A stretch of 13,507 bases of DNA from a virus (Duplodnaviria; Heunggongvirae; Uroviricota; Caudoviricetes), in IMG/VR virus record IMGVR_UViG_2534681663_000023, positions 1 through 13,507 of that record; one strand, given 5' to 3'. Position numbers and translations under genes: made by a program. The notes below the pieces were generated by a model. The model worked only from the letters and a program-made list of their open reading frames with translations, did not search any database and had not been told where the DNA came from. Below are positions 1-13,507 of this stretch, piece after piece. Within the stretch, counting starts at the first letter, position 1; every line of letters begins with the position of its first letter.

Positions 1-213
1 TTAAATTGTGCGGACGGCTACTGAACCGCAGCCGGTATTGATGAGAGTGAAGCACTTGCCCTTTAGCTCAAAGATGTATGCGGTTGCGTCTTTCATGTCA
101 AGTAACAAAGACTTTGTTGGCAGTTCAGTGAGTATGGCTGCTGCCCCATCATCGTCAATTGAAATCGTATGTCCGACCTCAAGGGCGATCAAATTAGAAG
201 TTATTTTTTTCAT
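1..213 (-). CDS. Hypothetical small protein (70 aa), complete with stop at 1-3
   Basis: ORF track; ATG at 213-211 preceded on the minus strand by GGATGA about 8 nt upstream; stop TAA is the reverse complement of positions 1-3. No recognisable family. The overlapping plus-strand ORF 8-337 looks less protein-like. Confidence 0.35.
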   Translation of the reverse strand: MKKITSNLIALEVGHTISIDDDGAAAILTELPTKSLLLDMKDATAYIFELKGKCFTLINTGCGSVAVRTI

Positions 214-469
214 TTCATATCATCCAACTGAACACGTAAATACCTTGCAATACTACTACCTATTGTATCAATACGGAATACTTATGTATCAAATACAACT
301 TAGTTTTAAGTTCTTAAATGAGTTATTTTTTAGATAGTTGTCTATTAATGAAGCCTTTTGCGGTCAGTAAACCTATGTAAAAAAATAGATAAGTCTTTAC
401 AACACTAACCTTTGATGTAATATCAGTAAGCACTTACCAAATAAAATCAAAACACGCAGGTTGATAATT

Positions 470-859
470 ATGGCTACCAACGAAACAAAAGAAGCTAAAG
501 TAAGTCGCTACGCTGCTTACATTGACGCTTTAATCGCGATTTCTCCGAAAAGCCAGGCGACCATCGCGAAAGAAGCAGGCTATAAAAACCCTAACAATCT
601 TTCACTTATCAAGAGCGGCAAAATCCCGCTTCCGATCGACAAGGTCAGAGCGTTGGCTAAAGCATTGGATGCCGATTCGGTCCGATTGATGCTAATGGTG
701 CTGGAAGAGCGTCATCCAGAGCTGTTAGCGTTTTTTCGCGACGAAGGCACAGCCCCTCTGACTAAAGATGAAAAACTAGTTCTGGAAGCCTTCCGTCGAC
801 GTTTCGGTGACCAACGTGGTGCGTCGGAGCGGGTTGTTGAGGCAATCAAGTCGCTATGA
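470..859 (+). CDS. Putative HTH DNA-binding regulator (about 129 aa), convergent with the integrase
   Basis: ORF track 461-859 begins at TTG; the first ATG is at 470 with AGG about 9 nt upstream. The segment SQATIAKEAGYKNPNNLSLIKSGKIPLPIDKVRALAKAL reads like a helix-turn-helix of the XRE/phage regulator kind. Its 3' end overlaps the integrase 3' end by 6 bp. Confidence 0.5.
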   Translation: MATNETKEAKVSRYAAYIDALIAISPKSQATIAKEAGYKNPNNLSLIKSGKIPLPIDKVRALAKALDADSVRLMLMVLEERHPELLAFFRDEGTAPLTKDEKLVLEAFRRRFGDQRGASERVVEAIKSL

Positions 860-1957
860 GAAATTTACACGGATTAGCTCAGTAGCGAGTCGATCTCCCT
901 TGAACTTATGATCTATCTCCTCTAAATCCTGTTTCTCTACGATTGATGCGATGTACGCCGAAAAACTGTTTAAGGCGTCTCGCATCTCGTCTATATAATC
1001 GTGTCGATCGTATACTCGATCTATCCCCTCAAGACTGTGGTTCATAATTTTGCGGGATACCTCCTGACTTATGCCTAACGCGGGGAAGTAACTACGCGCA
1101 GTACGACGCAAATCTCGGGGAGTAAATGGCTCAAGCTCCATCAACTCTGGACGTTCTAAAATCCTTCTCAACGCCTGTGATATGGCCACCTTAGACATTG
1201 GCACATCCTCACCCTGTTTCTTGTTTGAAGGAACAAGCCACTGGCTGCCTTTTCCGTATTTGATCAGCTCCTCAACACATTTGCGCATTAGCGGGCTTAA
1301 TGGTAACGAGTGCTGGCGAGCCGATTTATTCCTCGTTCCTTGATTCCATAAATTATATTCGAGGTTGAATTCTGATCTTTTAGCTCGGAGCACTTCATCT
1401 GGTCGTCTGGCCGCTACAAGGCATAATCTGGCCGCCCACTTTGTACCCTCACATACGTTGAAGTAGTCCCATACATTCCAAAAGACCCAGACCTCTGCGT
1501 CGGTCAGTTTGCGCTCGCGCGGCGTGGGCTTCGCGCCACCGGCTACTCTGTTAAGCGACATATCGTTCAATGGGGATGTATCAATTAAGCCCTGAAATGC
1601 ACACCAACTGAGAAACTGCTTCATCAGCGAGAACACACGTCTGCCCTGGACGATCTTGCCCTCAAGTATTAATGGGTTCACCAGCTGGTTGACTAAAACC
1701 CTACTAATATCACTTACTTTTACTTCACAGATATGCGGCATTACATGTATCAAAATACAATGAACAGCTATTTCAGGTCGACGTCTCGTTATCAGCAAAG
1801 ATAAGCGAGTGAATAACATGAATGCGGAAGAAAACGACATATCACCGTCGAAATTGGTGGTCGACACTGCTGACAAACCGGAAGCGCGTTCGAGATACTC
1901 GATGGCTTCTCTAGAGGTGTTTTCTGCTGCGCGTGCTTTATCAAAAGTGTTTTTCAT
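854..1957 (-). CDS. int: Tyrosine-type site-specific integrase, P4-like family; true start uncertain
   Basis: C-terminal catalytic region matches the phage integrase pattern: ARRPDEVLRAKRSEFNL (box I Arg), KSARQHSLPLSP, RDLRRTARSY, NHSLEGIDRVYDRHDY (catalytic Tyr). The first ~75 residues of the ORF do not look like the usual P4-type arm-binding domain, so the real start may be internal (for example the Met of MPHICEVKV). Confidence 0.8.
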   Translation of the reverse strand: MKNTFDKARAAENTSREAIEYLERASGLSAVSTTNFDGDMSFSSAFMLFTRLSLLITRRRPEIAVHCILIHVMPHICEVKVSDISRVLVNQLVNPLILEGKIVQGRRVFSLMKQFLSWCAFQGLIDTSPLNDMSLNRVAGGAKPTPRERKLTDAEVWVFWNVWDYFNVCEGTKWAARLCLVAARRPDEVLRAKRSEFNLEYNLWNQGTRNKSARQHSLPLSPLMRKCVEELIKYGKGSQWLVPSNKKQGEDVPMSKVAISQALRRILERPELMELEPFTPRDLRRTARSYFPALGISQEVSRKIMNHSLEGIDRVYDRHDYIDEMRDALNSFSAYIASIVEKQDLEEIDHKFKGDRLATELIRVNFS

Positions 1958-2054
1958 AGTCCACTCACTGAGTGAAGCCTGTTTTTACTGTATTTATAAA
2001 CAGTATGTTAGGCCTAAGTTTTGTATGATCAACAGTAAAATAGACTGTTTTTGA

Positions 2055-2089
2055 AAATGATTCCATACCTTACAAGTATGGAATCATTT
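2055..2089. repeat. Perfect 14-bp inverted repeat AAATGATTCCATAC / GTATGGAATCATTT with 7-bp spacer, about 100 bp upstream of the integrase start
   Basis: Read directly from the sequence; both arms contain the recurring motif ATGATTCCATAC. Candidate operator or recombinase binding site. Confidence 0.7.
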
Positions 2090-2256
2090 ATATAGCTTAC
2101 GTAAATTCTGAATAAATTATGTAGACAAACCATCTTAAACGCTAAATAGTAAAAAGCGCCTAATAACGCCAACTTTGGAATGCCATCTGAGCCAGATTGA
2201 TGAGAATGATTTGTTAGAAGAAAAAGAATGATGAAGAAGATGACGATCGCTAAAGT

Positions 2257-2673
2257 TCAGCTAGAATGGAAACCTTCTGCGACTTCAGCGAAGTAGCTGA
2301 GCAACCTAGTATCTCTTGCTGGCATACGATCGTGAGCTGGAGTGACTAGCCCCATCAGCAAAAAACGCCCGCTATCCCACATGTGCTCGGTATAAACGAG
2401 ATAGTGGTTTGAGGTTCGGTTGTAGTTCTCTTGCCTTGCGTTCCAGGTAAGCTGGAAATGCAAATTGACGTGAATATGCTGGACATTAGCATCAACGGCG
2501 AACGGCGGGAAGTCAAATGGCGCATCTCGTCCAAGAAGATTAGATGGTGCGCCAGTTGATTTGTAAGTAATGAACTCGGATTTGAGCTGACTTTCTAGGT
2601 CAGGGTAAACGACAAAAGTGGGCTGAAAAAAATCATCCCACGTAACTTGACTGTATTCAGCCGTTAATGCCAT
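2257..2673 (-). CDS. YafO-like type II toxin (putative ribosome-dependent mRNA interferase), 138 aa
   Basis: Blocks recalled from E. coli YafO appear in the same order: ITYKSTG...LLGRDAPFDFP, HIHVNLH, HYLVY, ARD. The start ATG overlaps the stop of the upstream gene (ATGGCATTAA). Identification is from memory and needs a profile search. Confidence 0.5.
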   Translation of the reverse strand: MALTAEYSQVTWDDFFQPTFVVYPDLESQLKSEFITYKSTGAPSNLLGRDAPFDFPPFAVDANVQHIHVNLHFQLTWNARQENYNRTSNHYLVYTEHMWDSGRFLLMGLVTPAHDRMPARDTRLLSYFAEVAEGFHSS

Positions 2674-3212
2674 TTAGCCGCAGCCTTGTTGCCAGTCTCT
2701 AATAGATGGTTCATGGCTAAAAGGTTGACACCAGAGTCACGCACTACAGAAGTGCGTGTAATCTGATCAATCAGATTGAGATAGTTTTTGGTCGCAATAC
2801 TGACCATTTTAATAGCCTTAAAAAACGCAAACTCAACAGTGTTTTTTTCGTAAGACATGATGACGTCTTTTTCAGGTAACATCAAAACAAAAGATTCTGC
2901 GATACCGGCTACATGAATAGTTTGATTCTTAATTTCTTCCGCTACTTTGATAGCAGCAAAGAAGTCAGTGTCAGCATAATGAGCAAGTTCAGCGCGGCTT
3001 GAACGCAGTTCTTTAGCCAATTCATTGAGAGCAGCTGTAAGATCACTGATGTCGGTTTTGTTGACTCTAGCGCCCATCTCATAAACCCGTTCTACAATCG
3101 TAGGCTGACACGCAACCGCTTTGGGTTGCGGCTGGATACTGGCAAGAACCAGTGCCACTGCTGCCTGCAAATGCTGGATTTTAAATTTCACGATAGACTC
3201 CATAATCGTCAT
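2664..3212 (-). CDS. Hypothetical protein (182 aa), translationally coupled upstream partner of the YafO-like toxin; possible atypical antitoxin
   Basis: ORF track; 8-nt overlap with the toxin start; no recognisable domain by eye; much larger than YafN or Phd-type antitoxins. Confidence 0.45.
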   Translation of the reverse strand: MTIMESIVKFKIQHLQAAVALVLASIQPQPKAVACQPTIVERVYEMGARVNKTDISDLTAALNELAKELRSSRAELAHYADTDFFAAIKVAEEIKNQTIHVAGIAESFVLMLPEKDVIMSYEKNTVEFAFFKAIKMVSIATKNYLNLIDQITRTSVVRDSGVNLLAMNHLLETGNKAAAKWH

Positions 3213-3293
3213 TTCTCGACGAAGCGTAGCATTCTACTACTGAACTTAACTATAAGCTAAAAAAAGTTGGTTGCATATGCGACTTGATAGCAA

Positions 3294-3320
3294 AAAGGGG
3301 CCGAAGCCCCTTTGGATTTT
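3294..3320. terminator. Bidirectional rho-independent terminator hairpin (GGGGC-CGAA-GCCCC) flanked by A/T runs
   Basis: On the minus strand the stem is followed by TTTTTG, which would terminate the tRNA-Asn transcript before the toxin module; on the plus strand it is followed by TTTGGATTTTG. Confidence 0.5.
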
Positions 3321-3387
3321 GCGCTGAAAAAAGTGTTGCTACGATGCTTAGAAGCAATGGTTAAAAAACGTCTGCCGTGTCTATCAC

Positions 3388-3462
3388 AGCGCTGAACGGT
3401 CTGGCGACATTTGCGGAGTCTTTCGTTCGGACGGTGGTGGCGAATCCAAACCGTTCAGCGCT
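3388..3462. repeat. Perfect 13-bp inverted repeat AGCGCTGAACGGT / ACCGTTCAGCGCT enclosing 49 bp, immediately 3' of the tRNA
   Basis: Read directly from the sequence. Lies between the tRNA 3' end (3467) and the terminator; could be a processing or structural element, or a small repeat element. Confidence 0.6.
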
Positions 3463-3466
3463 ATGT

Positions 3467-3541
3467 TGGCGATGGTGGGTGGACTCGAACCACCGACCAG
3501 TTGATTAACAGTCAACCGCTCTACCACTGAGCTACACCATC
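3467..3541 (-). tRNA. tRNA-Asn (anticodon GTT), 75 nt with encoded CCA
   Basis: Manual fold of the minus strand: acceptor GATGGTG/CACCATC, D-arm GCTC-AGTGGTA-GAGC, anticodon stem GTTGA/TCAAC with loop CTGTTAA (U33, GTT, A37), variable TGGTC, T-arm GGTGG-TTCGAGT-CCACC, discriminator G, CCA. Confidence 0.85.
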
Positions 3542-3704
3542 ATTTTCGCGGCGGTACTAGCTTATGGACAACCAGGCAGCCAGAAACTTTCCCGTAACTT
3601 GCACTTTACGTTAGTGCCAGACGAGGTATGTGGCTCGCTCATATGAGCGAAGATCTCGAATCTTTCTCGGTGGTTGATTGCCGTTAGATTCTTCGATCTT
3701 ATTG

Positions 3705-3719
3705 GATGTATGGAATCAT
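3705..3719. repeat. 15-bp direct repeat GATGTATGGAATCAT, copy 1 of 2 (second copy at 4725-4739)
   Basis: Exact 15-bp identity read from the sequence. Its reverse complement ATGATTCCATACATC carries the recurring motif. Copy 1 sits within the local palindrome ATGTATG-GAAT-CATACAT. Confidence 0.7.
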
Positions 3720-3790
3720 ACATGTTGTGAAGCCAGGGGCAATAAAGGCAACAATGTTTTCACTAGAGGGTTAATTAATCCTGCTTTCAC

Positions 3791-3900
3791 AACGTTGAGA
3801 TCACTGAACCGATTAATGTTCAACCCAACATATTGATCAGTCGCTACAGCTATGTGGAATCGCCTGTATGATTTTAAGAAAAATCAGTGATCTCAACGTT
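3791..3900. repeat. Perfect 17-bp inverted repeat AACGTTGAGATCACTGA / TCAGTGATCTCAACGTT separated by 76 bp, in an ORF-free region
   Basis: Read directly from the sequence; arms at 3791-3807 and 3884-3900. Candidate structured RNA or miniature inverted-repeat element. Confidence 0.65.
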
Positions 3901-4266
3901 ATGTGCTGACTAACCAAGTCAGCCGGGTTACGTCGCCGCTTTTAACCCAAGTATAAACGACATAAGTAATGGAAATGACGTAACAGAATGGACGGTCAGC
4001 TGAAACCGGGATGGGGGAATGGAATGATGAAACCAACCGCCCATTCTGTTACTTCATTGAATGGGGCATGGATGGTGCAATATGCCCTATTCTGCGTTCT
4101 GCAATCACACTCGCTCAGTGTGTCCCATTTTGGTGACGAGGCTGGAAACTGACCTCGCTGGTGTTTGGCTTCTTAGGCTACTGCCAGGTATGCATCTTCG
4201 TTTGCAGTTATATTTAACGTTCAAACAGTCGCATCTCAACGAAAACAAAGTGATCTTATACATATT

Positions 4267-4290
4267 AGATAAGTAAGTAAATACTTATCT
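4267..4290. terminator. Possible weak hairpin (AGATAAGTA / TACTTATCT, 6-nt loop) at the end of the small-ORF operon
   Basis: 9-bp AT-rich stem overlapping the stop of the 101-aa ORF; no strong U-run, so terminator function is uncertain. Confidence 0.25.
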
Positions 4291-4590
4291 ATCTGTGATG
4301 CGTTTAGTTGCTATCTTTTTGATCAGGCTCCCCTTTTGTTCCGAAGTTCTCATGATGATGGCGGTAAAACGCTTCGCTTGAATAGTGATAGTTTCGTTTT
4401 CCTTGAGTTCGCCGTAATGCGTCTCTAACAGGGACCCCAGACGCCACAGACCGTCGTCTATGCGTTTATGGCTGGCGAATCTGATCAGCAGTAGCTTTAC
4501 GATTAACTGACCAATGTAAAAGGCAAATCCGAAGCCGGCCGCCACAAGGTAGGTTGCCAGCCACCAGTCGAAGGAAGTCAAATTGCTCAT
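4285..4590 (-). CDS. Hypothetical small membrane protein (101 aa), last gene of the coupled small-ORF chain
   Basis: ORF track; N-terminal hydrophobic stretch WWLATYLVAAGFGFAFYIGQLIVKLLLI; its ATG overlaps the stop of the upstream 50-aa ORF (AAATGAGC). Confidence 0.45.
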   Translation of the reverse strand: MSNLTSFDWWLATYLVAAGFGFAFYIGQLIVKLLLIRFASHKRIDDGLWRLGSLLETHYGELKENETITIQAKRFTAIIMRTSEQKGSLIKKIATKRITDR

Positions 4591-4739
4591 TTTCGCACTC
4601 CCGTCTCGTGAACAACCCGATACACACGCTTACCGACACGAAGTGTTTTGGTTTGCAGTTCCTGCTGGACCAGGGCGCGGCAGATTGCGAGGCCGAGGCC
4701 CACGCCACCAGTAAAAGATAAAATGATGTATGGAATCAT
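4587..4739 (-). CDS. Small ORF (50 aa, below track cut-off): MIPYIILSFTGGVGLGLAICRALVQQELQTKTLRVGKRVYRVVHETGVRK; small membrane protein or relic of a sensor-kinase 3' end
   Basis: Translated by hand. Start ATG overlaps the stop of the 70-aa ORF (TGATG); stop overlaps the start of the 101-aa ORF. The GC-rich segment encodes GVGLGLAICRALV, reminiscent of the histidine-kinase G2 box. The start codon lies inside repeat copy 2. Confidence 0.35.
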   Translation of the reverse strand: MIPYIILSFTGGVGLGLAICRALVQQELQTKTLRVGKRVYRVVHETGVRK

Positions 4740-4951
4740 CAGTGCGCCCCCGCCTCAGTCAATTGCTGCAACAACAAATAACCTTTTTCAGTCAGTTGAT
4801 AGTTCTCAATACATCCCTTTGGAGAAACGTTGGCGACAAGATTCATGCGCTCCAGTTTGGCTCTGGTCTTCGGCTTCCAGTTGGCGTAGAACTCCTTCCA
4901 CTTGCTGATTTCACGCAGGGTTTCCTTCTCTCGTTTACTTAACATGCTCAT
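4739..4951 (-). CDS. Hypothetical small soluble protein (70 aa), possibly winged-helix-like
   Basis: ORF track; overlaps the 3' end of the 59-aa ORF and is coupled to the 50-aa ORF. Charged, helical-looking sequence (LSKREKETLREI ... LTEKGYLLLQQL). Confidence 0.45.
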   Translation of the reverse strand: MSMLSKREKETLREISKWKEFYANWKPKTRAKLERMNLVANVSPKGCIENYQLTEKGYLLLQQLTEAGAH

Positions 4952-5114
4952 CCTTAATCTCCTTCAGTGTGTCCGTGATATCTACTATGCGATAAATACG
5001 ACCTCGCCTTTGCATGACACCGGCTTTTACGTAATCGTGGATACAGCTGGACATAACCAGACTTCCGATAACAATGCCGACGACTAAAAATACAAACATC
5101 CAGCCGAGCATCAT
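4935..5114 (-). CDS. Small ORF (59 aa, below track cut-off): MMLGWMFVFLVVGIVIGSLVMSSCIHDYVKAGVMQRRGRIYRIVDITDTLKEIKDEHVK; predicted single-pass membrane peptide
   Basis: Translated by hand. Its ATG (5114-5112) overlaps the TGA (5113-5111) that ends the reconstructed native ligase frame (ATGA overlap). Confidence 0.4.
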   Translation of the reverse strand: MMLGWMFVFLVVGIVIGSLVMSSCIHDYVKAGVMQRRGRIYRIVDITDTLKEIKDEHVK

Positions 5115-5156
5115 TCTTTATCTCCAATACGATCTTCGGTATCTCGAAGACATTTA
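5111..5156 (-). other. Displaced native 3' end of the ligase gene (encodes ...CLRDTEDRLGDKE-stop), separated from the gene body by the transposon
   Basis: Joining the sequence right of the right-hand ATTTA to the sequence left of the left-hand ATTTA keeps the ligase frame open for 13 more codons and ends at TGA 5113-5111. Confidence 0.55.
5152..5156. repeat. Target-site duplication ATTTA, left copy (right copy at 10797-10801)
   Basis: Identical 5-bp sequence immediately outside each terminal inverted repeat; 5-bp duplications are typical of Tn3-family transposition. Confidence 0.8.
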
Positions 5157-5194
5157 GGGGAGCCCGCAGAATTCGGAAAAAATCGTACGCTAAG
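5157..5194 (+). repeat. Transposon terminal inverted repeat, tnpA-proximal (38 bp); contains the tnpA stop codon
   Basis: GGGG...ACGCTAAG architecture typical of Tn3-family ends; tnpA stop at 5190-5192 lies within it. Confidence 0.85.
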
Positions 5195-8156
5195 GTTTTC
5201 CGGGCATCCGTAAGGGCCGAAACTTCCCGTCTTCCAGTCTGCGGCTCTGCCGCCAGACGTAATCGCCGGTTAGGTTGATGTGCTCCCAGCCCAGCGGCGA
5301 CAGGAATTGCAGCAGCTCGCCGTCCACCGGCTTGCCGGCCTCGACCAACCCCTGGGTGGCGCGTTCCAGGTACACCGTGTTCCACAGCACGATAGCCGCC
5401 GTCACCAGGTTGAGGCCGCTGGCCCGGTAGCGCTGCTGCTCGAAGCTCCGATCCCTGATTTCCCCAAGGCGGTTGAAGAACACCGCCCTGGCCAGCGAGT
5501 TGCGCGCCTCACCTTTGTTCAGGCCGGCATGCACGCGGCGGCGCAGTTCAACACTTTGCAGCCAGTCCAGGATGAACAGCGTGCGCTCGATCCGGCCCAG
5601 CTCGCGCAGGGCCACGGCCAGTCCGTTCTGGCGCGGGTAGCTGCCGAGCTTGCGCAGCATCAGCGAGGCGGTGACGGTGCCCTGCTTGATCGAGCTGGCC
5701 AGGCGCAGGATGTCGTCCCAGTGGGCACGCACGTGCTTGATGTTCAGGGTGCCGCCGATCAGCGGGCGCAACGTCGGGTAGGCTTGCACGCCCTGCGGCA
5801 CGTACAGCTTGGTTTCGCCGAGGTCGCGGATGCGCGGCGCGAAGCGGAAGCCTAGCAGGTGCATCAGGGCAAAGACGTGATCGGTGAAGCCGGCCGTGTC
5901 GGTGTAGTGCTCCTCGATCCGCAGGTCGGACTCGTGGTACAGCAGGCCGTCGAGCACATAGGTGGAATCGCGGACGCCGACATTCACCACGCGGGTGCTG
6001 AACGGCGCGTACTGGTCGGAGATATGGGTATAGAACAGCCGTCCCGGCTCGCTACCGTACTTCGGGTTGACGTGCCCGGTGCTCTCGCCCCGGCCACCCG
6101 CGCGGAAGCGCTGGCCATCGGAGGATGAGGTCGTGCCGTCGCCCCAGTGGGCGGCAAAGGCGTGGCGATACTGGTGGTTGACCAGCTCGGCCAAGGCCGC
6201 CGAATAGGTTTCGTCGCGGATGTGCCAGGCTTGCAGCCAGGACAGCTTGGCGTAGGTCAGGCCGGGGCTCGACTCGGCCATCTTGGTCAGCCCGAGGTTG
6301 ATCGCATCACCGAGGATTGCGGACAGCAGCAACGTCCTGTCTTTGGCCTCGGCCCCGTCCTTCAAGTGGGTGAAGTGGCGGCTGAAGCCCGTCCAGTCGT
6401 CCACGTCCATCAGCAGTTCGGTGATCTTGATGCGCGGCAGTAACTGGCTGGTTTGGTCGATCAGCGCCTGCGCCCGATCCGGCACCGCCGCATCCAGCGG
6501 GGGGATTTTCAGCCCTGACTCGGTGAGGATGGCATCGGGCAGCTCGTTGTCCTTGGCCAGGCGGGTGACGGTGGCCAACTGCTCGTCCAGCAGCTGCAAA
6601 CGCTCTTCCAGGTACTGGTCGCTGTTCGGGTTGATCGCCAGGGGCAGGGCCTGCTCGCGCTTGAGTGCGGCGAACTTCTCGGCCGGCAGCAGGTAGTCGT
6701 CGAAGTCGCGGAACTGCCGCGAGCCCTTGACCCAGATGTCGCCGGAGCGCAGGGCGTTCTTCAGCTCGGACAGGGCGCAGATTTCGTAGAATTTCCGGTC
6801 GAGGCCTTCCGGGGTGATCACCAGCGGCTTCCAGCGCGGCTTGATGAAGGCCGTGGGTGCATCGGCCGGCACCTTGCGCAGGTTGTCGGCGTTCATCTCA
6901 CGCAGGGTCTGCACGGCTGCCAGCACGCCTTGCGCGGCCGGCGCGGCGCGCAGTTCCAGCACCTCCAGCAAGGCCGGCGTGTAACGGCGCAGGGTGGCGA
7001 AGTTCTCGCCGACCAGGTGCAGGTGGTCGAAGCCTTCCGGCCGGGCCAGCAGCTCGGCCTCGCTGACGCTCTCGGTGAACTCGTCCCAGGGAATCACCGC
7101 CTCGATGGCGGCATAGGGGTCGCTGCCGCTTTCCTTCGCTTCCAGCAGCGCCTGGCCGATCCTGGAGTACAGGCGCACCTTGTCGTTGATCGCCTTGCCC
7201 TGCTTCTGGAACTGCTGCTGATGCTTGTGCTTCGCGCCGCTGAACAGCTTGACCAGGATGCGGTCATGCAGATCGACCAGCTCATCGATCACGGTCGCGG
7301 TGCTCTCCAGCACCACGGCGGCCAGGGTCGCGTAGCGGCGCTGCGGCTCGAACTTACCGAGGGCTTTGGGCGTCATCTGCCCACCCTCGCGGGCCAGCTT
7401 GAGCAGGCGGTTCTGGTGGATGTGCCGGCCCAGGCCTTCGGGCAAGTCCACCAACTGAAATGTCTTCAGCCGCTCGATGTGTTCCAGCATGTGCCGAGAG
7501 TTGGGTTTCAGCGGTGCCTGGCGCAGCCAGGTCAACCAGGTGATGCTGCTGCCGGCCTTGAGCTTCAACAGCTCGTCCAGCTTGGCCCGATGCGAGTCCG
7601 TGAGTGGTTCGACCAGGGCGCGGTAGACCCGCCGATTGGCTCGCGCAATGGCTTCCGAGCAGGCCCGGTCAATCACGCTCAGCGCCGGCAGGATGCGTCG
7701 TTTCTGCCGTAGGCTCTCCAGGGCCTGACCGGCCAGCAGCAAGCCTTTGTCGGTCTGCTGGGCCAGCTCGGTTAGCTCGCGCACCAGGGCGCGGAAGTCG
7801 GACAGGCCGAACGGGGCCAGTTGCAGGTAGGTGCGCAGTTCCTGGGCATGCTCGCGACGGGTCACGTCGCGCTCGCCGTACTTTGCCCAGCTCGCCGGCT
7901 CGGCCTGGACTTGCTTCGCCACCCACAGGATGACCGGCTCGGGCAGCTCGCTGTCGGTTCCCAGCGCGTAACCGGGGTAGCGCAGCAGGCAGAGCTGCAC
8001 GGCGAAGCCGAGGCGGTTGGCGTCGCCGCGTCGCTGGCGGATCAGCGACAGGTCGGAGTCGTTGAAGGTGTAGTAGCGGATCAGGTCATCCTGGCTTTCC
8101 GGCAGCGCAAGCAGGGTGTCCCGCTCCGTGGCCGAGAGGATCAAGCGACGCGGCAT
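5190..8156 (-). CDS. tnpA: Tn3-family transposase TnpA (988 aa)
   Basis: Length and sequence ([44 protein letters not shown]...) match Tn21/Tn501-type TnpA as recalled; very GC-rich relative to its surroundings; terminates inside the terminal repeat. Confidence 0.95.
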
Positions 8157-8159
8157 GTG

Positions 8160-8720
8160 TCAGTCGTCCGTGCGGAGGTACTGGTAGAGGGTTTCCCGGC
8201 TGATGTTGAACTCGCGGGCAAGCTGCGCCTTGGGCTCGCCGGCCGTCGCTCGCTGCCGCAGGGTAGCAGCCTGCTCATCGGACAGGGCTTTCTTGCGGCC
8301 CCGGTACGCGCCACGCTGCTTGGCCAAGGCGATGCCCTCACGCTGCCGCTCGCGGATCAGGGCGCGCTCGAACTCAGCGAAGGCCCCCATCACCGACAGC
8401 ATCAGGTTGGCCATCGGCGAGTCCTCGCCAGTGAACACCAGGCCCTCCTTCAGGAACTCGATGCGCACGCCGCGCTGAGTCAGCTTCTGTACCAAGCGAC
8501 GCAGGTCATCGAGGTTGCGGGCCAGCCGATCCATGCTGTGCACCACCACTGTATCGCCTTCGCGGACGAAGCTCAGCAGCGCTTCGAGCTGGGGGCGCTG
8601 GGTGTCCTTGCCCGATGCCTTGTCGGTGAACACCTTGCTCACCTGGGTTTGTTCCAGCTGGCGTTCCGGGTTCTGGTCAAAGCTGCTGACCCGGACGTAG
8701 CCGATGCGGTGCCCCTGCAC
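8160..8720 (-). CDS. tnpR: Serine resolvase TnpR (186 aa)
   Basis: N-terminal serine-recombinase motif (IGYVRVSSFDQNPERQ), C-terminal HTH (ISRETLYQYLR); sits directly upstream of tnpA in the same orientation, as in the Tn21 subgroup. Confidence 0.95.
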   Translation of the reverse strand: MQGHRIGYVRVSSFDQNPERQLEQTQVSKVFTDKASGKDTQRPQLEALLSFVREGDTVVVHSMDRLARNLDDLRRLVQKLTQRGVRIEFLKEGLVFTGEDSPMANLMLSVMGAFAEFERALIRERQREGIALAKQRGAYRGRKKALSDEQAATLRQRATAGEPKAQLAREFNISRETLYQYLRTDD

Positions 8721-8724
8721 GATG

Positions 8725-8900
8725 TCTCCTTGGTTGAAGGCGGCTTAAGTGCACTTTCTGTTCCGTTGTGCCTCAAAGCCCATTTCTGTCAGGCTGAAAT
8801 CTATAACCTTCGCGGGCATGTGTCAAAAAATGGGAAAGCAGACTCTATTCTGACGAAGCGGCGCGGCCCTGCCTGACATCAAGTTAGGGTATAGCCTAGA
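8725..8900. promoter_or_regulatory. Putative res (resolution) site and tnpR promoter region
   Basis: Lies immediately upstream of tnpR and contains several TGTCA/TGACA half-site-like repeats (TGTCAGGCTGAAAT..., CATGTGTCA, CTGCCTGACATC). Exact subsite boundaries not determined. Confidence 0.5.
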
Positions 8901-9029
8901 TTGACATGCGCGATGCAACCCTTAACTTGCTTGCACCTATCGTTTCCATGCTAGCTTTATCGTAACGCTCAAGAAATTGGGCTTAATGCCGAAAACAATA
9001 AAATAAAACAGCCAACCCTTGAGGTTCTT

Positions 9030-10607
9030 ATGCGCCAGAATTTACCAGTGACGGGTCGAAACTTAGAACTCCCAAAAGATGCCAATATTCTTTCGACTAC
9101 CTCCCCTCAAAGCCATATCACGTACGTTAATCCTGACTTCATTAAAATCAGTGGTTTCACTGAGGAAGAACTATTAGGCCAGCCTCACAACATCGTAAGA
9201 CACCCAGATATGCCGCCTGCTGCATTTGAGCATATGTGGAGTACATTAAAATCTGGCCGCTCATGGATGGGGCTAGTAAAAAATCGCTGTAAAAATGGCG
9301 ACCACTATTGGGTAAGTGCTTATGTAACGCCAATAGCTAAGAATGGTTCGATTGTTGAATACCAGTCTGTAAGGACCAAGCCTGAACCTGAGCAGGTTTT
9401 GGCTGCGGAAAAATTATATGCTCAATTGAGAAGCGGGAAGGCCGCGAGGCCGAAATTGGCTGCTAGCTTTTCCGTGAAAATACTCTTGCTCATATGGGGT
9501 AGTATTATATCAAGCGCAATGGCTGCCGGCATGCTTACTGATACATCAATAAGCAGCTTATTGTTAGCCACTTTAATGTCAGGAAGCTTAAGCTCTGTTA
9601 GTGTTTTGGCTATTCTCTCTCCTCTTGGAAGACTGGTTGAAAGAGCCAGGAATATTTCCAATAACCCATTAAGTCAATCCCTCTACACTGGGCGCACCGA
9701 TGAGTTTGGCCAAATAGAGTTTGCTTTACGAATGATGCAAGCTGAAACAGGCGCCATAGTAGGTCGCATAGGTGATGCATCAAATCGGCTTAGCGAACAC
9801 ACCCGAGGCCTACTAAAGGATATTGAGTCAAGCAATGTACTTACAGTTGAGCAGCAGGCAGAGACAGATCAAATAGCAACGGCAGTAAACCAAATGGTGG
9901 CAAGCATTCAAGAGGTTGCGAGCAATGCACAGCATGCTGCAGATGCGGCCGGAAGAGCAGACACTGAGACGGCATCTGGCCAGCGTCTGGTAGCCCACAC
10001 AAGCCAGTCAATCACTGCCCTTGAAGGTGAAATTAGGCAAGCCACTCAGGTTATTCATGAGCTTGAAGGTCAAAGTAACGAGATATCAAAAGTTCTTGAC
10101 GTTATACGAGGGATCGCCGAGCAAACGAATTTGTTGGCACTCAACGCAGCAATTGAGGCCGCGCGTGCTGGTGAGCAGGGGCGTGGTTTTGCTGTTGTCG
10201 CCGATGAGGTTCGCAGTCTTGCTGCTCGCACACAGCAATCGACAACGGATATTCAAAGCATGATCAGCGCTCTACAAGAGCGAGCGCAATCCGCTGTTAC
10301 AGTCATGGAGCAAAGTAGTCGGCAAGCGCACACGAGTGTAGCTCACGCAGAGGAAGCAGCTACAGCTCTTGATGGAATTGGCCAACGCGTTAACGAAATT
10401 ACCGACATGAACGCGCAAATAGCGACTGCGGTCGAGCAGCAGGGAGCAGTAAGTGAAGACATAAACCGCAGTATTATCAATATACGCGATGCTGCTGATA
10501 CCAATGTACAGACCGGGCAGAATAATTTGCAAAGTGCGAAATCTGTCGCTCAGTTAACTAGCGCTCTGAGCGAACTGGCAAAACAGTTTTGGGAAAAACG
10601 AGGATAA
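9030..10607 (+). CDS. aer: Aer-like aerotaxis receptor (N-terminal PAS, membrane hairpin, methyl-accepting chemotaxis signalling domain), 525 aa; transposon passenger
   Basis: N-terminus closely resembles E. coli Aer PAS ([68 protein letters not shown]); hydrophobic hairpin near residues 150-195; conserved signalling core ([32 protein letters not shown]). Confidence 0.85.
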
Positions 10608-10626
10608 CGCTTTTCAGTATCTCGAC

Positions 10627-10661
10627 AGGGATAACTTACTTTACCATCGGTTATCCCTTTT
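10627..10661 (+). terminator. Rho-independent terminator after the chemoreceptor gene
   Basis: Hairpin AGGGATAAC-(14 nt)-GTTATCCCT followed by TTTT, about 20 bp after the stop codon. Confidence 0.5.
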
Positions 10662-10740
10662 AGCCGCACAAATTTTAGCCATGGCTTTTCAGGAAGTCAG
10701 GGCTATCAGAATGGCCTTAGAAAGCCTAGTCAAAGAGCTG

Positions 10741-12078
10741 TCACGAGAACACCGTTAGCTTAGCGTACGATTTTTTCCGAATTCTGCGGTTCCCCCATTT
10801 AGGCCACTTCAGACGTGGATGACGCAAGCTACCATCTGGCGTTTTCTCATGGCAGTGAACCTCAACGATGCGTCCACGATACTTCTCCTGATTGTTCCAG
10901 ATTTCATCCAGGTATTTATGCTTGATACCGCTGGCACGAACGATGACGCCGTTCTCCAGACGAATCACTATCTTGCCTAGCGTATGCGCAAATCCAGAAT
11001 CCGGATCGCCAGGCTCGAAGTCGATGATTTCACCGTCTTCTGAATCCTCGTCTTTCAGCTTCCACCAGCTGCGGGTACGTTTGAACTCGTAAACTGAATC
11101 CGGATCTTTGCCCATCTCTCCCTCTTCATTCTCGTCCAGTCGCTTCATGAAACGTTCGATGAAATCTTCGTGGCTATGGATGATGTAGAACGGATGAAGG
11201 TGGATATCTTGCGCATAATCTTCCACGCAAGTGTTGCGGAACAACGCCACCAGCATAGCCAGGCGCTCTTTCAGCTTCATACCGGTCTTCAGGTACTCTT
11301 TGCTTTTTGCTTGAGCACGCCACTCCGGTAAGAAGAAATCGAAAATGTGGTAAACGGCACCAATGGCTTTCACGTTCTTCTTACGAAGCGCCGACACTGA
11401 CTGGTTGAATGTACCTGCAGTGCCCTCTCCATCGAAGAAGATGTGATTGAAGCCGGAGAGTCTGCCCCGCTCCAGCATGGCTGGTTTAAGGTGATCGAGT
11501 GACGTAATCGGATTGCCGGTGCGCGTCAGGAAATTGACCTCACCCTCGTCCACGATGACTTCGCAGATAACCCGGAGACCATCGAGTTTGAGACTGCCGA
11601 TCATTGGCCACTTGGCCTTTGGATTTGGTTTAAATGGGTATTTGTCGCCTTTCTCCTTGTACGGAGACGCCAGCTGTACCTCAAACTTCGGAATTGGGTT
11701 TTCGAACACCTTGTTGCACAGGCTGATGCCGACACCGGCTTTCGGATCTTTCAGCAGGAAGCGACGAAACACGTCCTGCCCGTCAGCGCACATCGAGGCA
11801 ACGAGTGATTCGACAGCAGCAATAGCGATGTTCCCGGTCAGTTCGCGCGCTGCCAGCTTCTCCAGCAGATCTACTACCTTCTGGTCGCTGGGTACGGAAG
11901 TATCGAGTGGCTCGGCCACTTTGTACTTCTTCACACCGAATCGAATGAATGGATTGAGCATTAGCGAGACCATGCTCTGTTCAAATTCATCCAGATTGGC
12001 CAGCGCCTCTTTCTTGGCGTTGGTTCCCATCGTTTTAATAGCATCCAGCTTGTGCTTTAGGGCGATCAGTTTTTCCAT
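10741..12078 (-). CDS. T4-type ATP-dependent DNA ligase; 3' end interrupted by the transposon (last 18 codons of this ORF are read from the ATTTA duplication and terminal repeat)
   Basis: Nucleotidyltransferase motifs in order: I KLDGLR, III FFDGEG, IIIa YHIFDF, IV EGEMGKD, V WWKLK, VI LRHPRL. N-terminal region parallels T4 ligase as recalled (LTGNIAIAAV, ISLCNKVFENPIP, LASPYKEKG). GGAGG lies about 10 nt upstream of the ATG. Confidence 0.85.
   Translation of the reverse strand: MEKLIALKHKLDAIKTMGTNAKKEALANLDEFEQSMVSLMLNPFIRFGVKKYKVAEPLDTSVPSDQKVVDLLEKLAARELTGNIAIAAVESLVASMCADGQDVFRRFLLKDPKAGVGISLCNKVFENPIPKFEVQLASPYKEKGDKYPFKPNPKAKWPMIGSLKLDGLRVICEVIVDEGEVNFLTRTGNPITSLDHLKPAMLERGRLSGFNHIFFDGEGTAGTFNQSVSALRKKNVKAIGAVYHIFDFFLPEWRAQAKSKEYLKTGMKLKERLAMLVALFRNTCVEDYAQDIHLHPFYIIHSHEDFIERFMKRLDENEEGEMGKDPDSVYEFKRTRSWWKLKDEDSEDGEIIDFEPGDPDSGFAHTLGKIVIRLENGVIVRASGIKHKYLDEIWNNQEKYRGRIVEVHCHEKTPDGSLRHPRLKWPKWGNRRIRKKSYAKLTVFS
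10759..10796 (-). repeat. Transposon terminal inverted repeat, passenger-proximal (38 bp)
   Basis: Reverse complement matches the tnpA-proximal repeat at 35 of 38 positions; followed immediately by ATTTA. Confidence 0.85.
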
Positions 12079-12112
12079 TAGTGTTTAACCTCCATCGGTC
12101 GCTCGGGAGTTT

Positions 12113-12589
12113 TCATGTGTTTTCTTTGGTTGCTTCTTCAATGAGTGCCGCGTACACGTCAGTGACCGGCGCCAGTGAATCGGTGGGCTTGGTTTCGGAT
12201 TTAGCAGGTTCTGTTTTCTTCGTGCGATGAATAAGACTGTCAATTGTCGCGGTGTTTCGCTTCCGGGGGAGCGTTCTGGCATGGTCGTTTTGCTCTTCCA
12301 CTTCTTTGATAAGTGAAGACATATCGATGAAGTAGAGCTGTTCGTCTTTGCGGATCTCTTCGACCATCATTTTCAGTGCCTGACATTTACCAGCAGCAAT
12401 AGCCGCAGCGCAGGACTGGAACGATGTAGCCGGGAGACGTTTTTCTTTATAGGCGAGGATCGTGTGTTGGCAGACTGTATAGCTGCAATGAGCCTCATGG
12501 CCGTTGAGCTTCACTTCCGGGCAGCGCAGCGAATAACCGTTGTTTCCGGAGATAGACGGGATTTTCGACAAATCTGTTCTTGTGGACAT
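12113..12589 (-). CDS. Hypothetical Cys/His-rich protein (158 aa), possible zinc-binding; directly upstream of the ligase
   Basis: ORF track; cluster RCPEVKLNGHEAHCSYTVCQH...CAAAIAAGKC; 34-bp gap to the ligase start, same strand. No family recognised. Confidence 0.45.
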   Translation of the reverse strand: MSTRTDLSKIPSISGNNGYSLRCPEVKLNGHEAHCSYTVCQHTILAYKEKRLPATSFQSCAAAIAAGKCQALKMMVEEIRKDEQLYFIDMSSLIKEVEEQNDHARTLPRKRNTATIDSLIHRTKKTEPAKSETKPTDSLAPVTDVYAALIEEATKENT

Positions 12590-12636
12590 GCTTCTAACCG
12601 TAATCTTGTACTTACTTATTAATCGCAGTTTAAAGA

Positions 12637-12653
12637 AGCCCCACGAGGGGGCT
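12637..12653. other. Short GC hairpin (AGCCCC-ACGAG-GGGGCT) between the upstream gene and the 158-aa gene
   Basis: Read from the sequence; no convincing U-run on the minus strand, so it may be an attenuator or structural element rather than a terminator. Confidence 0.25.
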
Positions 12654-12670
12654 AAATGTTTTATCGAGGC

Positions 12671-13069
12671 TTACCAGGTCGCCCAGCCAGTCATTTTGTC
12701 CTGAGCAGCTTCGAACCGGTATGGGTCCAGTAAATCGTTGGTACGATGAACGGCGTAGGATTTGGCTTCTTGTTTAATCATGGGTAATTCGTTGGCCAGA
12801 CGAGCCACTTGCCCTGCAAAACTGGCGAGTACTCCGTCACATGCCTGACCCGCGTCGACAATGATGCGCACCAGGTCTAAGTCGCTGCGGCACATATCGC
12901 AGATAATGCCGTATTCCACCTCACGAATGCGCTCAACGGCTTTTTTGATATCGCCACTGACCACCAATTCCAGCAAACCAGGTGGAGTTGTCAGATCTGT
13001 TACGCGCTCGGTAACTTCAGACTGTTCGACAATACTCAGGAACGCCGCGATGGACGGGTCATCCGCCAC
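12671..13069 (-). CDS. Hypothetical protein, probably the C-terminal part of a larger gene truncated by the IS3-family insertion
   Basis: The annotated start is GTG with no clear RBS; the frame stays open for 19 more codons upstream (ERFEDIVDATLRTLKVRAG...) right up to the IS boundary at 13127. No family recognised. Confidence 0.4.
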   Translation of the reverse strand: MADDPSIAAFLSIVEQSEVTERVTDLTTPPGLLELVVSGDIKKAVERIREVEYGIICDMCRSDLDLVRIIVDAGQACDGVLASFAGQVARLANELPMIKQEAKSYAVHRTNDLLDPYRFEAAQDKMTGWATW

Positions 13070-13126
13070 ACCAGCTCTGACTTTGAGCGTGCGAAGAGTT
13101 GCGTCGACAATATCCTCAAACCGTTC

Positions 13127-13507
13127 TGAACCGCCCCGGAAATCCTGGAGACTAAACTCCCTGAGAAAGAGGTAAACAGGATGACTAAAAATACTCGTTT
13201 TTCCCCCGAAGTCCGTCAGCGGGCGATTCGTATGGTTCTGGAAAGTCAGGATGAATATGACTCACAGTGGGCGGCAATTTGTTCCATTGCCCCAAAGATT
13301 GGCTGTACGCCGGAGACTCTGCGTGTCTGGGTTCGCCAGCATGAGCGGGATACCGGGGGCGGTGATGGTGGGCTCACCAGCGCTGAACGTCAGCGTCTGA
13401 AAGAGCTGGAACGTGAAAATCGTGAACTGCGCCGCAGTAACGATATCCTTCGCCAGGCTTCCGCTTATTTTGCGAAGGCGGAGTTCGACCGCCTCTGGAA
13501 AAAATGA
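13127..13507 (+). mobile_element. IS3-family insertion sequence (IS629/IS1203-like), left end; continues beyond the window
   Basis: Terminal sequence TGAACCGCCCCGGAAATCCTGGAG... followed about 55 bp later by an OrfA-type gene; matches the IS629-like left end as recalled. Confidence 0.8.
13181..13507 (+). CDS. IS3-family transposase OrfA (108 aa, HTH plus leucine zipper)
   Basis: [23 protein letters not shown]...[34 protein letters not shown] is the typical IS3 OrfA; ends at an A6 run before TGA, consistent with the programmed -1 frameshift site into OrfB, which lies outside the window. Confidence 0.9.

Follow-up and report, generated by a model that had tools for sequence, protein, structure and literature searches.

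A ligase-centred gene block struck by two mobile elements, very likely part of the replication gene cluster of an SSU5/pHCM2-type phage-plasmid

Introduction

SSU5-like elements form the largest described supergroup of phage-plasmids (PMC7969092). A relative, Escherichia phage Cyrano (pLF82), is a ciprofloxacin-inducible phage-plasmid present at about 5.5 copies per cell (PMC9928086). The resistance-gene insertions of SSU5-like phage-plasmids of the SSU5_pHCM2 group concentrate in one locus, whose neighbours are PhoH, hypothetical proteins and DNA ligase (Pfeifer et al., 2022, PMC9600943, legend of Fig. 2). Here, we describe a 13,507-nucleotide (nt) stretch of DNA from a virus of the class Caudoviricetes (IMG/VR record IMGVR_UViG_2534681663_000023, positions 1 to 13,507), hereafter called the window. 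On its minus strand a T4-type ATP-dependent DNA ligase gene stands in a series of seven genes, two of which have been hit by mobile elements. The original prediction, made from the nucleotide sequence and its open reading frames (ORFs), held that the ligase and its partners might form an undescribed stand-alone module, possibly devoted to DNA repair, anti-restriction or defence. We consider it very likely that the region belongs instead to the cluster of replication genes in an SSU5/pHCM2-type phage-plasmid; a Tn1721-type transposon and the insertion sequence (IS) IS1203 have damaged it in this copy.

The window and its intact counterparts

A six-frame ORF listing of the window confirmed the minus-strand gene series. 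When the transposon (5157-10796) and the IS (from 13127) are left out, the sequence reads as the remnant of a gene for a protein of 270 amino acids (aa), a gene for a 158-aa cysteine protein, the ligase gene and four coupled ORFs of 59, 70, 50 and 101 aa. This reconstructed arrangement exists intact in the Escherichia coli plasmid pEC21Z137-115K, which is without both insertions: window positions 1-5158 are collinear with it at 99.8% and positions 10796-13126 at 99.96%, and the collinearity stops at 13126. Dozens of E. coli and E. fergusonii plasmids of 105-115 kb match the window at 99.4-100%, and the near-identical complete records are circular plasmids of this size range. The DNA of Salmonella phage SSU5 is 93% identical to the window region over 2331 nt.

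A common gene order is found in SSU5, Cyrano and Klebsiella phage pJN2-26: ParA, hypothetical proteins, a DnaB-like helicase, primase, a variable slot, the 270-aa protein, the 158-aa protein, ligase, the four small genes, tRNA-Asn, a second variable slot, two CobT/CobS-like genes and DNA polymerase. All seven proteins of the window are kept in these three elements at 43-98% identity (Table 1). Their assignment to PHROG families, without exception, bears out the phage origin that had been predicted. The closest described counterpart is the segment SSU5_042-SSU5_048 of phage SSU5 (NC_018843 38241-41776), which shares with the window all seven genes, their order and orientation, and their neighbours, at 93% DNA and 80-98% protein identity. 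The window copy differs from it by the transposon in the 3' end of the ligase gene, which costs the ligase its last 13 residues, and by IS1203 in the first gene. The same seven-gene block is present in pHCM2-like, pKpn-like and pMT1-like phage-plasmids as well as in Cyrano, and both SSU5 and Cyrano carry ParA, endolysin, spanin and tail-fibre genes. By identity and by gene order with SSU5/pHCM2-type elements, the region therefore belongs to the SSU5 backbone. The seven genes had already been sequenced and are known as backbone genes of SSU5-type phage-plasmids; the proteins other than the ligase are uncharacterized.

Because the seven genes lie inside a long co-directional replication cluster, they do not form a stand-alone cassette. 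What had been taken for an undescribed module wired around the ligase is a slice of this cluster, lying between the primase and helicase genes on one side and the CobT/CobS-like and DNA polymerase genes on the other. The genes do co-occur elsewhere in the same order, as the comparison of gene neighbourhoods in SSU5, Cyrano and pJN2-26 demonstrates. The original prediction had itself allowed that the locus might prove to be an ordinary prophage replication region with well-annotated homologues; this is largely the case as far as the replication cluster goes, but the neighbouring genes are annotated only as hypothetical proteins.

The 59-, 70-, 50- and 101-aa genes overlap one another by 1-17 nt and, where the locus is uninterrupted, the 58/59-aa gene begins in overlap with the stop codon of the ligase, according to both coordinates and annotation. 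Given these overlaps, the predicted coupling of the small ORFs is real. The host element would be of a temperate siphovirus type of ~100-115 kb, kept as a plasmid in Enterobacteriaceae. When intact, it would express a single leftward transcription unit running from the helicase to the DNA polymerase gene and including the seven genes and both variable slots.

Table 1. Features of the window, grouped as the seven-gene block, the mobile elements, and the spacer with the adjoining variable slot
Feature	Position	Strand	Basis or remark
3' remnant (C-terminal 151 codons) of 264-270-aa gene, SSU5_042 homologue	12671-13126	-	phrog_4248; cut by IS; identity 43-87% (SSU5, Cyrano, pJN2-26)
158-aa Cys protein, SSU5_043 homologue	12113-12589	-	PHROG and profile; phrog_5055, related to phrog_4558; identity 65-92% (SSU5, Cyrano, pJN2-26)
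ATP-dependent DNA ligase, T4-type, SSU5_044 homologue, 445-aa chimeric ORF	10741-12078	-	PF01068, phrog_114, PDB; identity 85-98% (SSU5, Cyrano, pJN2-26)
Displaced ligase 3' end, last 13 codons CLRDTEDRIGDKE and stop	5111-5156	-	comparison with intact gene
58/59-aa protein, SSU5_045 homologue	4935-5114	-	phrog_4381, E 1e-38; identity 69-88% (SSU5, Cyrano, pJN2-26)
70-aa protein, SSU5_046 homologue	4739-4951	-	phrog_4054; 71-93% identity
50-aa protein, SSU5_047 homologue	4587-4739	-	phrog_6302; 70-80% identity
101-aa protein, SSU5_048 homologue	4285-4590	-	phrog_4507; 62-91% identity
Tn1721/Tn1722-type Tn3-family transposon, 5640 bp	5157-10796	not applicable	38-bp inverted repeats, 5-bp duplication, tnpA and tnpR
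tnpA, 988 aa	5190-8156	-	matching records: 'Tn3-like element TnAs1 family transposase'
tnpR, 186 aa	8160-8720	-	matching records: 'recombinase family protein'
Chemotaxis-like gene, 525 aa	9030-10607	+	matching records: 'PAS domain-containing methyl-accepting chemotaxis protein'
IS1203/IS629 (IS3 family) left end, terminal repeat TGAACCGCCCCGG and orfA start	13127-13507	+	runs off window
Unannotated conserved structured RNA-like element	3760-4284	-	between 101-aa gene and tRNA-Asn; covariation
tRNA-Asn	3467-3541	-	
182-aa gene overlapping toxin gene upstream, possible antitoxin	2664-3212	-	variable slot
YafO-family toxin	2257-2673	-	variable slot
Tyrosine integrase	854-1957	-	variable slot
XRE-type 132-aa gene	461-859	+	variable slot

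Related replication clusters in distant phages

Relatives of the ligase and of the 158-aa protein, which we call the Cys4 protein after its four invariant cysteines, extend well beyond the SSU5 supergroup. Using tblastn, members of the 158-aa family were placed in Pseudomonas phages of the genus Nickievirus and in Stenotrophomonas phages, with genomes of 108-112 kb, and the ligase is homologous to those of distant phages at a BLASTP E-value (E) of 4e-18. In Pseudomonas phage ZY21 (Nickievirus; gp045-gp060) the genes follow each other as PhoH, helicase, primase, a hypothetical protein, Cys4 protein, ligase, a small ORF, CobT, CobS, a further hypothetical protein and the alpha subunit of DNA polymerase III (PolIII alpha). 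The Stenotrophomonas phage BUCTxx99 has the same order minus the extra hypothetical gene, and its ligase, labelled 'hypothetical', was confirmed by tblastn (E 5e-26). The Nickievirus and the Stenotrophomonas phages BUCTxx99 and ANB28 thus share with the SSU5-type elements the succession helicase-primase-Cys4-ligase-CobT-CobS-PolIII alpha, with one unrelated gene between primase and Cys4 protein in ZY21. They differ in having no detectable homologues of the 270-aa protein or the small ORFs, in Cys4 proteins that are longer (~200-220 aa) and carry an extra C-terminal motif compared with the window protein, and in record titles that bear no plasmid designation. In three metagenomic contigs of 79-107 kb, DnaB_C and DNAG_N genes are followed by one or two unrelated genes, the Cys4 protein and the ligase, the latter directly after Cys4 in one contig and after one small gene in two; in two of these contigs the fetched region goes on to include CobT.

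Altogether, in each of the five distant phage genomes or contigs examined (~80-112 kb) the Cys4 gene is found after primase and before ligase, immediately upstream of the ligase gene in three and one small gene away in the other two. Furthermore, the Cys4 and ligase genes overlap by 1-17 nt in Cyrano, pJN2-26, ZY21, BUCTxx99 and one metagenomic contig. In none of these distant ligase-bearing genomes and contigs could homologues of the 270-aa protein and the four small ORFs be detected; these five genes are lineage-specific and restricted to the SSU5 supergroup. The proposed linkage of the ligase to all of its partners consequently breaks down outside this supergroup, where only the Cys protein stays with it: judged from the gene neighbourhoods, Cys4 protein and ligase form the only deep linkage, always inside a replication cluster.

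The set of genes common to SSU5-type phage-plasmids and the distant ~80-112 kb phages comprises PhoH, a hypothetical protein, in part an Hfq-like protein, the DnaB-like helicase, primase, Cys4, ligase, CobT/CobS-like proteins and PolIII alpha, the last of these as far as the fetched loci extend, with extra unrelated genes in some lineages. This shared cluster points to a wide clade with a common replisome.

These comparisons bear on the proposal that the block is a self-contained defence or anti-defence cassette (e.g. for anti-restriction) carried as hotspot cargo, in which the ligase would repair nuclease damage and the membrane and Cys proteins would serve as sensors or effectors. The two plastic regions flanking the block do hold toxin-antitoxin genes, an integrase, fimbriae and resistance genes, most partners of the ligase are without an assigned function, and small membrane proteins are generally known as common effectors in defence and exclusion systems. 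Yet none of the seven proteins matches a PADLOC-DB v2 model at E ≤ 0.01. The block is backbone, its order being kept in SSU5, Cyrano and pJN2-26 and the position of ligase and Cys4 genes in distant phages, and the insertions land in it rather than deliver it. Moreover, since the small ORFs and the 270-aa gene are absent from the distant ligase-bearing relatives, there is no conserved multi-gene 'system'. We regard such a cassette as highly improbable, and we found nothing in support of the defence or anti-restriction role that had been suggested.

The DNA ligase

The intact ligase is a protein of 440 aa, encoded at 8961-10283 of the comparison locus L001. It has the NTase (nucleotidyltransferase) domain of ATP-dependent ligases (PF01068, 47.2 bits against a gathering cut-off of 26.2) and matches phrog_114 at E 6e-124, the sole one of the seven PHROG families with an assigned function. 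A search of the PDB returned T4 ligase (6DT1, E 2.5e-24) as the top solved relative; T7 ligase (1A0I) was also matched, as were the ATP-dependent ligase chains 6RAU, 6RAR and 6RAS of ~430-440 residues (E ~1e-23). Similarity to T4 gp30 extends over the DNA-binding region at the N terminus and over both the NTase and the OB domain. Residues 13-205 of the query align to residues 28-221 of the 6DT1 chain, and residues 12-125 to the isolated DNA-binding-domain chain of T4 ligase (5WFY, E 1.7e-5), which indicates an N-terminal alpha-helical DNA-binding domain like that of T4 ligase. The intact protein has motifs I (K164-LDG), III (FFDGE), IV (EGEMGK), V (WWKLK) and VI (418-435), and the sequence LRHPRLKWPKCLRDTEDR of the intact homologue aligns to '...IRLREDK' of T4. 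In contrast, query residues ~205-305 do not align, at the place where T4 ligase has its unique gp45-clamp-binding loop. Pairwise tblastn gave identities of ~25-34% to T4-like phage ligases and of ~22-37% to matches outside the SSU5 group. The 'T4-type' label given in the original prediction appears fair. Profile searches with each protein thus identified the ligase and yielded no assignable function for the other six.

In the window, the ligase is native over residues 1-427 (10797-12078); in place of its last 13 residues come 18 that are read from the transposon end, the insertion lying 39 nt before the ligase stop codon. The native part therefore stops within motif VI, and R430, D434 and R435 are lost. 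The lost segment is the one that aligns to 'IRLREDK' of T4. For lysine adenylation, T4 ligase presents residues of its motif VI to the active site, among them R465, D467 and K468 (PMC6212786). With half of motif VI gone, the window allele is probably dead, i.e. unable to charge itself with AMP.

Going by its family membership, the intact enzyme would be the phage's own sealer of nicks and Okazaki fragments. Alternatively, ligase and Cys4 protein could be a two-gene unit for repair or end joining, acting on host-nuclease nicks, in packaging or in circularization, and merely embedded among replication genes. A match of the ligase to a model of the non-homologous end-joining (NHEJ) type (TIGR02779, E 8.5e-12), weak and far below the cut-off of that model, points this way, as does the conserved pairing with Cys4. 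In addition, SSU5 was deposited as a linear 103-kb record and related plasmids are circular, from which it follows that the ends are presumably joined after infection. However, the best relatives of the enzyme are the replicative phage ligases of T4 and T7, no Ku protein and no polymerase or nuclease partner of NHEJ is present, and the position between primase and polymerase is invariant. We therefore think a dedicated repair unit unlikely; repair and the sealing of Okazaki fragments by the same ligase are not mutually exclusive.

A cysteine protein paired with the ligase

The 158-aa protein was predicted to be rich in Cys and His. It indeed holds five of each; four of the Cys residues, and none of the His residues, stay invariant in the wider family. 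An N-terminal domain of ~100 aa is followed by a variable linker and, at the C terminus, by a short conserved motif, YAxxINxAxKE, which reads DVYAALIEEATKE in the window. Across 20 diverse members, aligned at a mean column identity of 26%, the residues that never vary are N17, C23, Y37, C40, C60, C69 and E78 (window numbering), all of them in the N-terminal domain. The family profile found 197 proteins among 1.84 billion representatives, the distant members being proteins of 180-220 aa that fall in phrog_4558 and are without a Pfam domain. The relationship is supported by a comparison of the Cys4 protein with ZY21 gp054 (hhalign probability 96.6%, E 5.7e-10). In a collection of 5.8 billion proteins, nearly all homologues of the 158-aa and 270-aa proteins are encoded on enterobacterial contigs ~100-116 kb long, and every one is annotated as 'hypothetical'.

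No match to the 158-aa protein was obtained in Pfam, NCBIfam, the PDB or PADLOC, including with the profile of the 20 diverse members, and a search for domain fusions among its longer relatives found none. The AlphaFold2 (AF2) model, built from a 16-sequence alignment, is poor (pLDDT 50), too poor for a fold search.

Considering the conserved adjacency of the two genes and their apparent translational coupling, the Cys4 protein most likely binds metal and acts as an accessory of the phage ligase or replisome. The invariant residues C23, C40, C60 and C69, candidate metal ligands of what the original prediction called a zinc-binding-like protein, may instead form two disulfides. Replicative ligases generally need a clamp tether, and the tether of T4 ligase is a loop found in no other ligase (PMC6212786). 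An adaptor role is thus plausible: the Cys4 protein may be a zinc-binding adaptor through which the ligase reaches the fork or the sliding clamp of the host, in place of the built-in loop of T4.

The Cys4 relatives of 200-220 aa end in a helix-like motif, (G)MSLLE(I/L)AR (for example GMSLLEIAR; alignment columns 295-310), which is absent from the window protein. This motif recalls the beta-clamp-binding motif of E. coli MutS, QMSLL, a resemblance that we offer as a lead and not as evidence.

The 270-aa protein and the four small genes

The 132-aa ORF with a GTG start at 12671-13069 is part of the 3' 151 codons of the 270-aa gene, whose first 119 codons are absent from the window and lie beyond IS1203. 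The gene is intact at L001 10876-11688, where residues 101-112 form a tandem duplication of six residues, VYTNQT VYTNQT. This duplication, outside the window, is found in the E. coli lineage closest to it and accounts for a length of 270 instead of 264 aa.

The products of the four small genes had been described as membrane peptides, and for three of them this is upheld: the 59-, 50- and 101-aa products carry a single N-terminal hydrophobic segment that exceeds the threshold commonly used for transmembrane segments. In the 59-aa protein, whose gene annotators start one codon later to give 58 aa, the Kyte-Doolittle mean over 19 residues peaks at 2.57 (residues 7-25). The 70-aa product, in contrast, is soluble and basic. 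It is labelled 'putative transcriptional regulator' in phage Cyrano, a label that we do not adopt, as NCBIfam gave no more than a weak hit below threshold and neither Pfam nor the PDB a significant match. Likewise, the label 'C-type natriuretic protein' on the 101-aa gene is inherited and unsupported, there being no Pfam or NCBIfam match. The 59-aa and 50-aa proteins have a similar layout, in which the N-terminal hydrophobic segment is followed by a basic tail with R(I/V)YR(I/V)V; the match between them is weak (E 0.002, 18% identity) and we do not claim that they are paralogues born of an old duplication.

The four small genes look like lineage-specific early genes sharing the transcript. They might accordingly be a separate early-gene set carried on the ligase transcript, perhaps for host takeover, superinfection exclusion or lysis timing. 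The small ORFs are confined to the SSU5 supergroup and ligase and Cys4 reach much further, distant relatives hold different small ORFs in the slot, and within the supergroup the small ORFs diverge faster than the ligase (62-93% against 85-98% identity in SSU5, Cyrano and pJN2-26). An N-terminal hydrophobic segment in three of the four proteins would also suit such functions. On the other hand, searches of Pfam, PHROG, PADLOC, NCBIfam and the PDB revealed no homology to characterized exclusion, holin or takeover proteins, and the holin, endolysin and spanin genes of SSU5 and Cyrano lie elsewhere. We hold a separate early-gene set to be a serious possibility, at somewhat less than even chances. 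It would refine the assignment of the region to a replication cluster, with which it is compatible, rather than compete with it.

Mobile elements and the insertion hotspot

Both of the predicted mobile elements are real. The transposon is bounded by 38-bp inverted repeats of Tn3-family type (5157-5194 and 10759-10796, 92% complementary) and flanked by a 5-bp target duplication, ATTTA (5152-5156 and 10797-10801); the empty target site in a related plasmid reads GAAGACATTTAGGCCACTTCAG. Its G+C content of 65-67% stands out against the 45-53% of the flanks. It consists of tnpA, tnpR and a chemotaxis-like gene, without a resistance gene. From the repeat sequence and the chemotaxis-like gene, we take it to belong to the Tn1721/Tn1722 type. 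The IS end is 100% identical over 381 nt to copies annotated as 'IS3-like element IS1203 family transposase'; the right end of the element and its target duplication fall beyond the window.

The accessory hotspot inferred in the original prediction is corroborated in two ways. Firstly, a Tn1721-type end is joined to the backbone at at least three different points in the window and related plasmids. One is the window's own site (10796/10797). The second lies 21 nt deeper in the ligase gene, in plasmid p1 of E. coli cM2a (L010 ~9195), where a transposon remnant is accompanied by CTX-M-27, dfrA17, aadA5 and IS26, and the third at about window position 4086, inside the spacer RNA element, in pLAO59 (L011 ~9198), beside a sil operon. 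Secondly, the published insertion locus of the SSU5_pHCM2 group lies beside the ligase gene (PMC9600943). Like that locus, the window has Tn3-like and IS elements gathered beside or inside the ligase gene; it differs in that the transposon carries no resistance gene.

The transposon would cut the four downstream ORFs off from their native upstream transcription. As insertion-bearing plasmids persist, the ligase region is dispensable for plasmid life, and the element of the window is probably impaired as a phage and still maintained as a plasmid.

Several points weigh against the assignment to a phage-plasmid replication cluster. The 13.5-kb window itself is without phage structural, lysis or plasmid-maintenance genes, so that its membership in a phage-plasmid rests on near-identity to complete records. 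Scans of the region for sigma-70 promoters and terminators gave results at chance level. A replication role of the Cys4, 270-aa and small-ORF proteins is read from gene position only, with no family, fold or literature annotation, and small membrane proteins are unexpected as replisome parts. Finally, the probable loss of ligase activity is deduced from the loss of motif VI, and the persistence of insertion-bearing plasmids says nothing about the lytic cycle.

A structured RNA-like element beside tRNA-Asn

The spacer between the 101-aa gene and tRNA-Asn measures 740 nt and is ORF-poor. Within it, a block of 161 alignment columns (~4100-4260) is 85% invariant in four phage-plasmids, compared with 67% for the ligase genes and 76% for the best 160-nt window of the ligase. 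Long hairpins are found in the RNA-like element at ~4059-4092, 3974-4058 and 3788-3903. In an alignment of 12 sequences, from E. coli, Salmonella Typhi, Enterobacter, Yersinia pestis pMT1, Cronobacter, E. albertii and Klebsiella, 110 local pairs were obtained with 98.8% of cells paired. Compensatory changes affect 11 pairs, against 5.0±1.4 in shuffles and 0-4 in slid controls. There are 160 G.U and 4 A.C cells, a count biased by the structure having been predicted on the minus strand; the excess favours a minus-strand RNA, in the same sense as the operon. The element occurs, always unannotated, in 773 plasmid records of the SSU5 supergroup, among them pMT1 of Y. pestis and pHCM2-type plasmids of S. 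Typhi. It matches no Rfam family.

Two other explanations of the spacer were rejected. A small protein gene is at odds with the 1-2-nt indels by which relatives differ in the conserved block and with the variable sites, which show no third-position bias. As regards transfer-messenger RNA (tmRNA), only sub-threshold Rfam scores were obtained (14.7 and 19.9 bits against gathering cut-offs of 84 and 47), and ARAGORN found none. The element may act as a processing platform located upstream of the tRNA genes; alternatively, it may be a non-coding RNA.

Combined with what was found for the Cys4 protein, this leads to a twofold proposal, which we put forward tentatively and consider, as a whole, rather doubtful: that the Cys4 protein is an unrecognized ancient accessory of the ligase or replisome in a siphovirus clade of ~80-115 kb, by which we mean the carriers of DnaB-like helicase, DnaG-like primase, ATP ligase and PolIII-alpha genes, and, separately, that the structured RNA of ~500 nt at 3760-4284 is a novel non-coding RNA of phage-plasmids.

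Beside the 3' end of tRNA-Asn lies a 20-nt inverted repeat (3385-3404/3446-3465), 90% complementary, with its arms 41 nt apart. It might be a terminator or the remnant of a further tRNA; Cyrano has three, with tRNA-Ser and tRNA-Thr beside tRNA-Asn. Further on, several genes occupy the variable slot of the window between tRNA-Asn and the CobT-like gene (461-3212; Table 1). Across SSU5, Cyrano and pJN2-26, the contents of this second slot are integrase, repressor, toxin-antitoxin, and PhoH or glutaredoxin genes.

Concluding remarks

The locus is an annotated part of the backbone of a well-studied phage-plasmid family, struck by two common mobile elements. The novelty that is left lies in the conserved pair of Cys4 protein and ligase and in the neighbouring structured RNA. 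For the family, the window adds one more documented insertion to the hotspot beside the ligase in which resistance genes accumulate in SSU5-like phage-plasmids. Insertions in this hotspot can probably knock out the phage ligase, and in doing so they may turn an inducible phage-plasmid into a plain plasmid.

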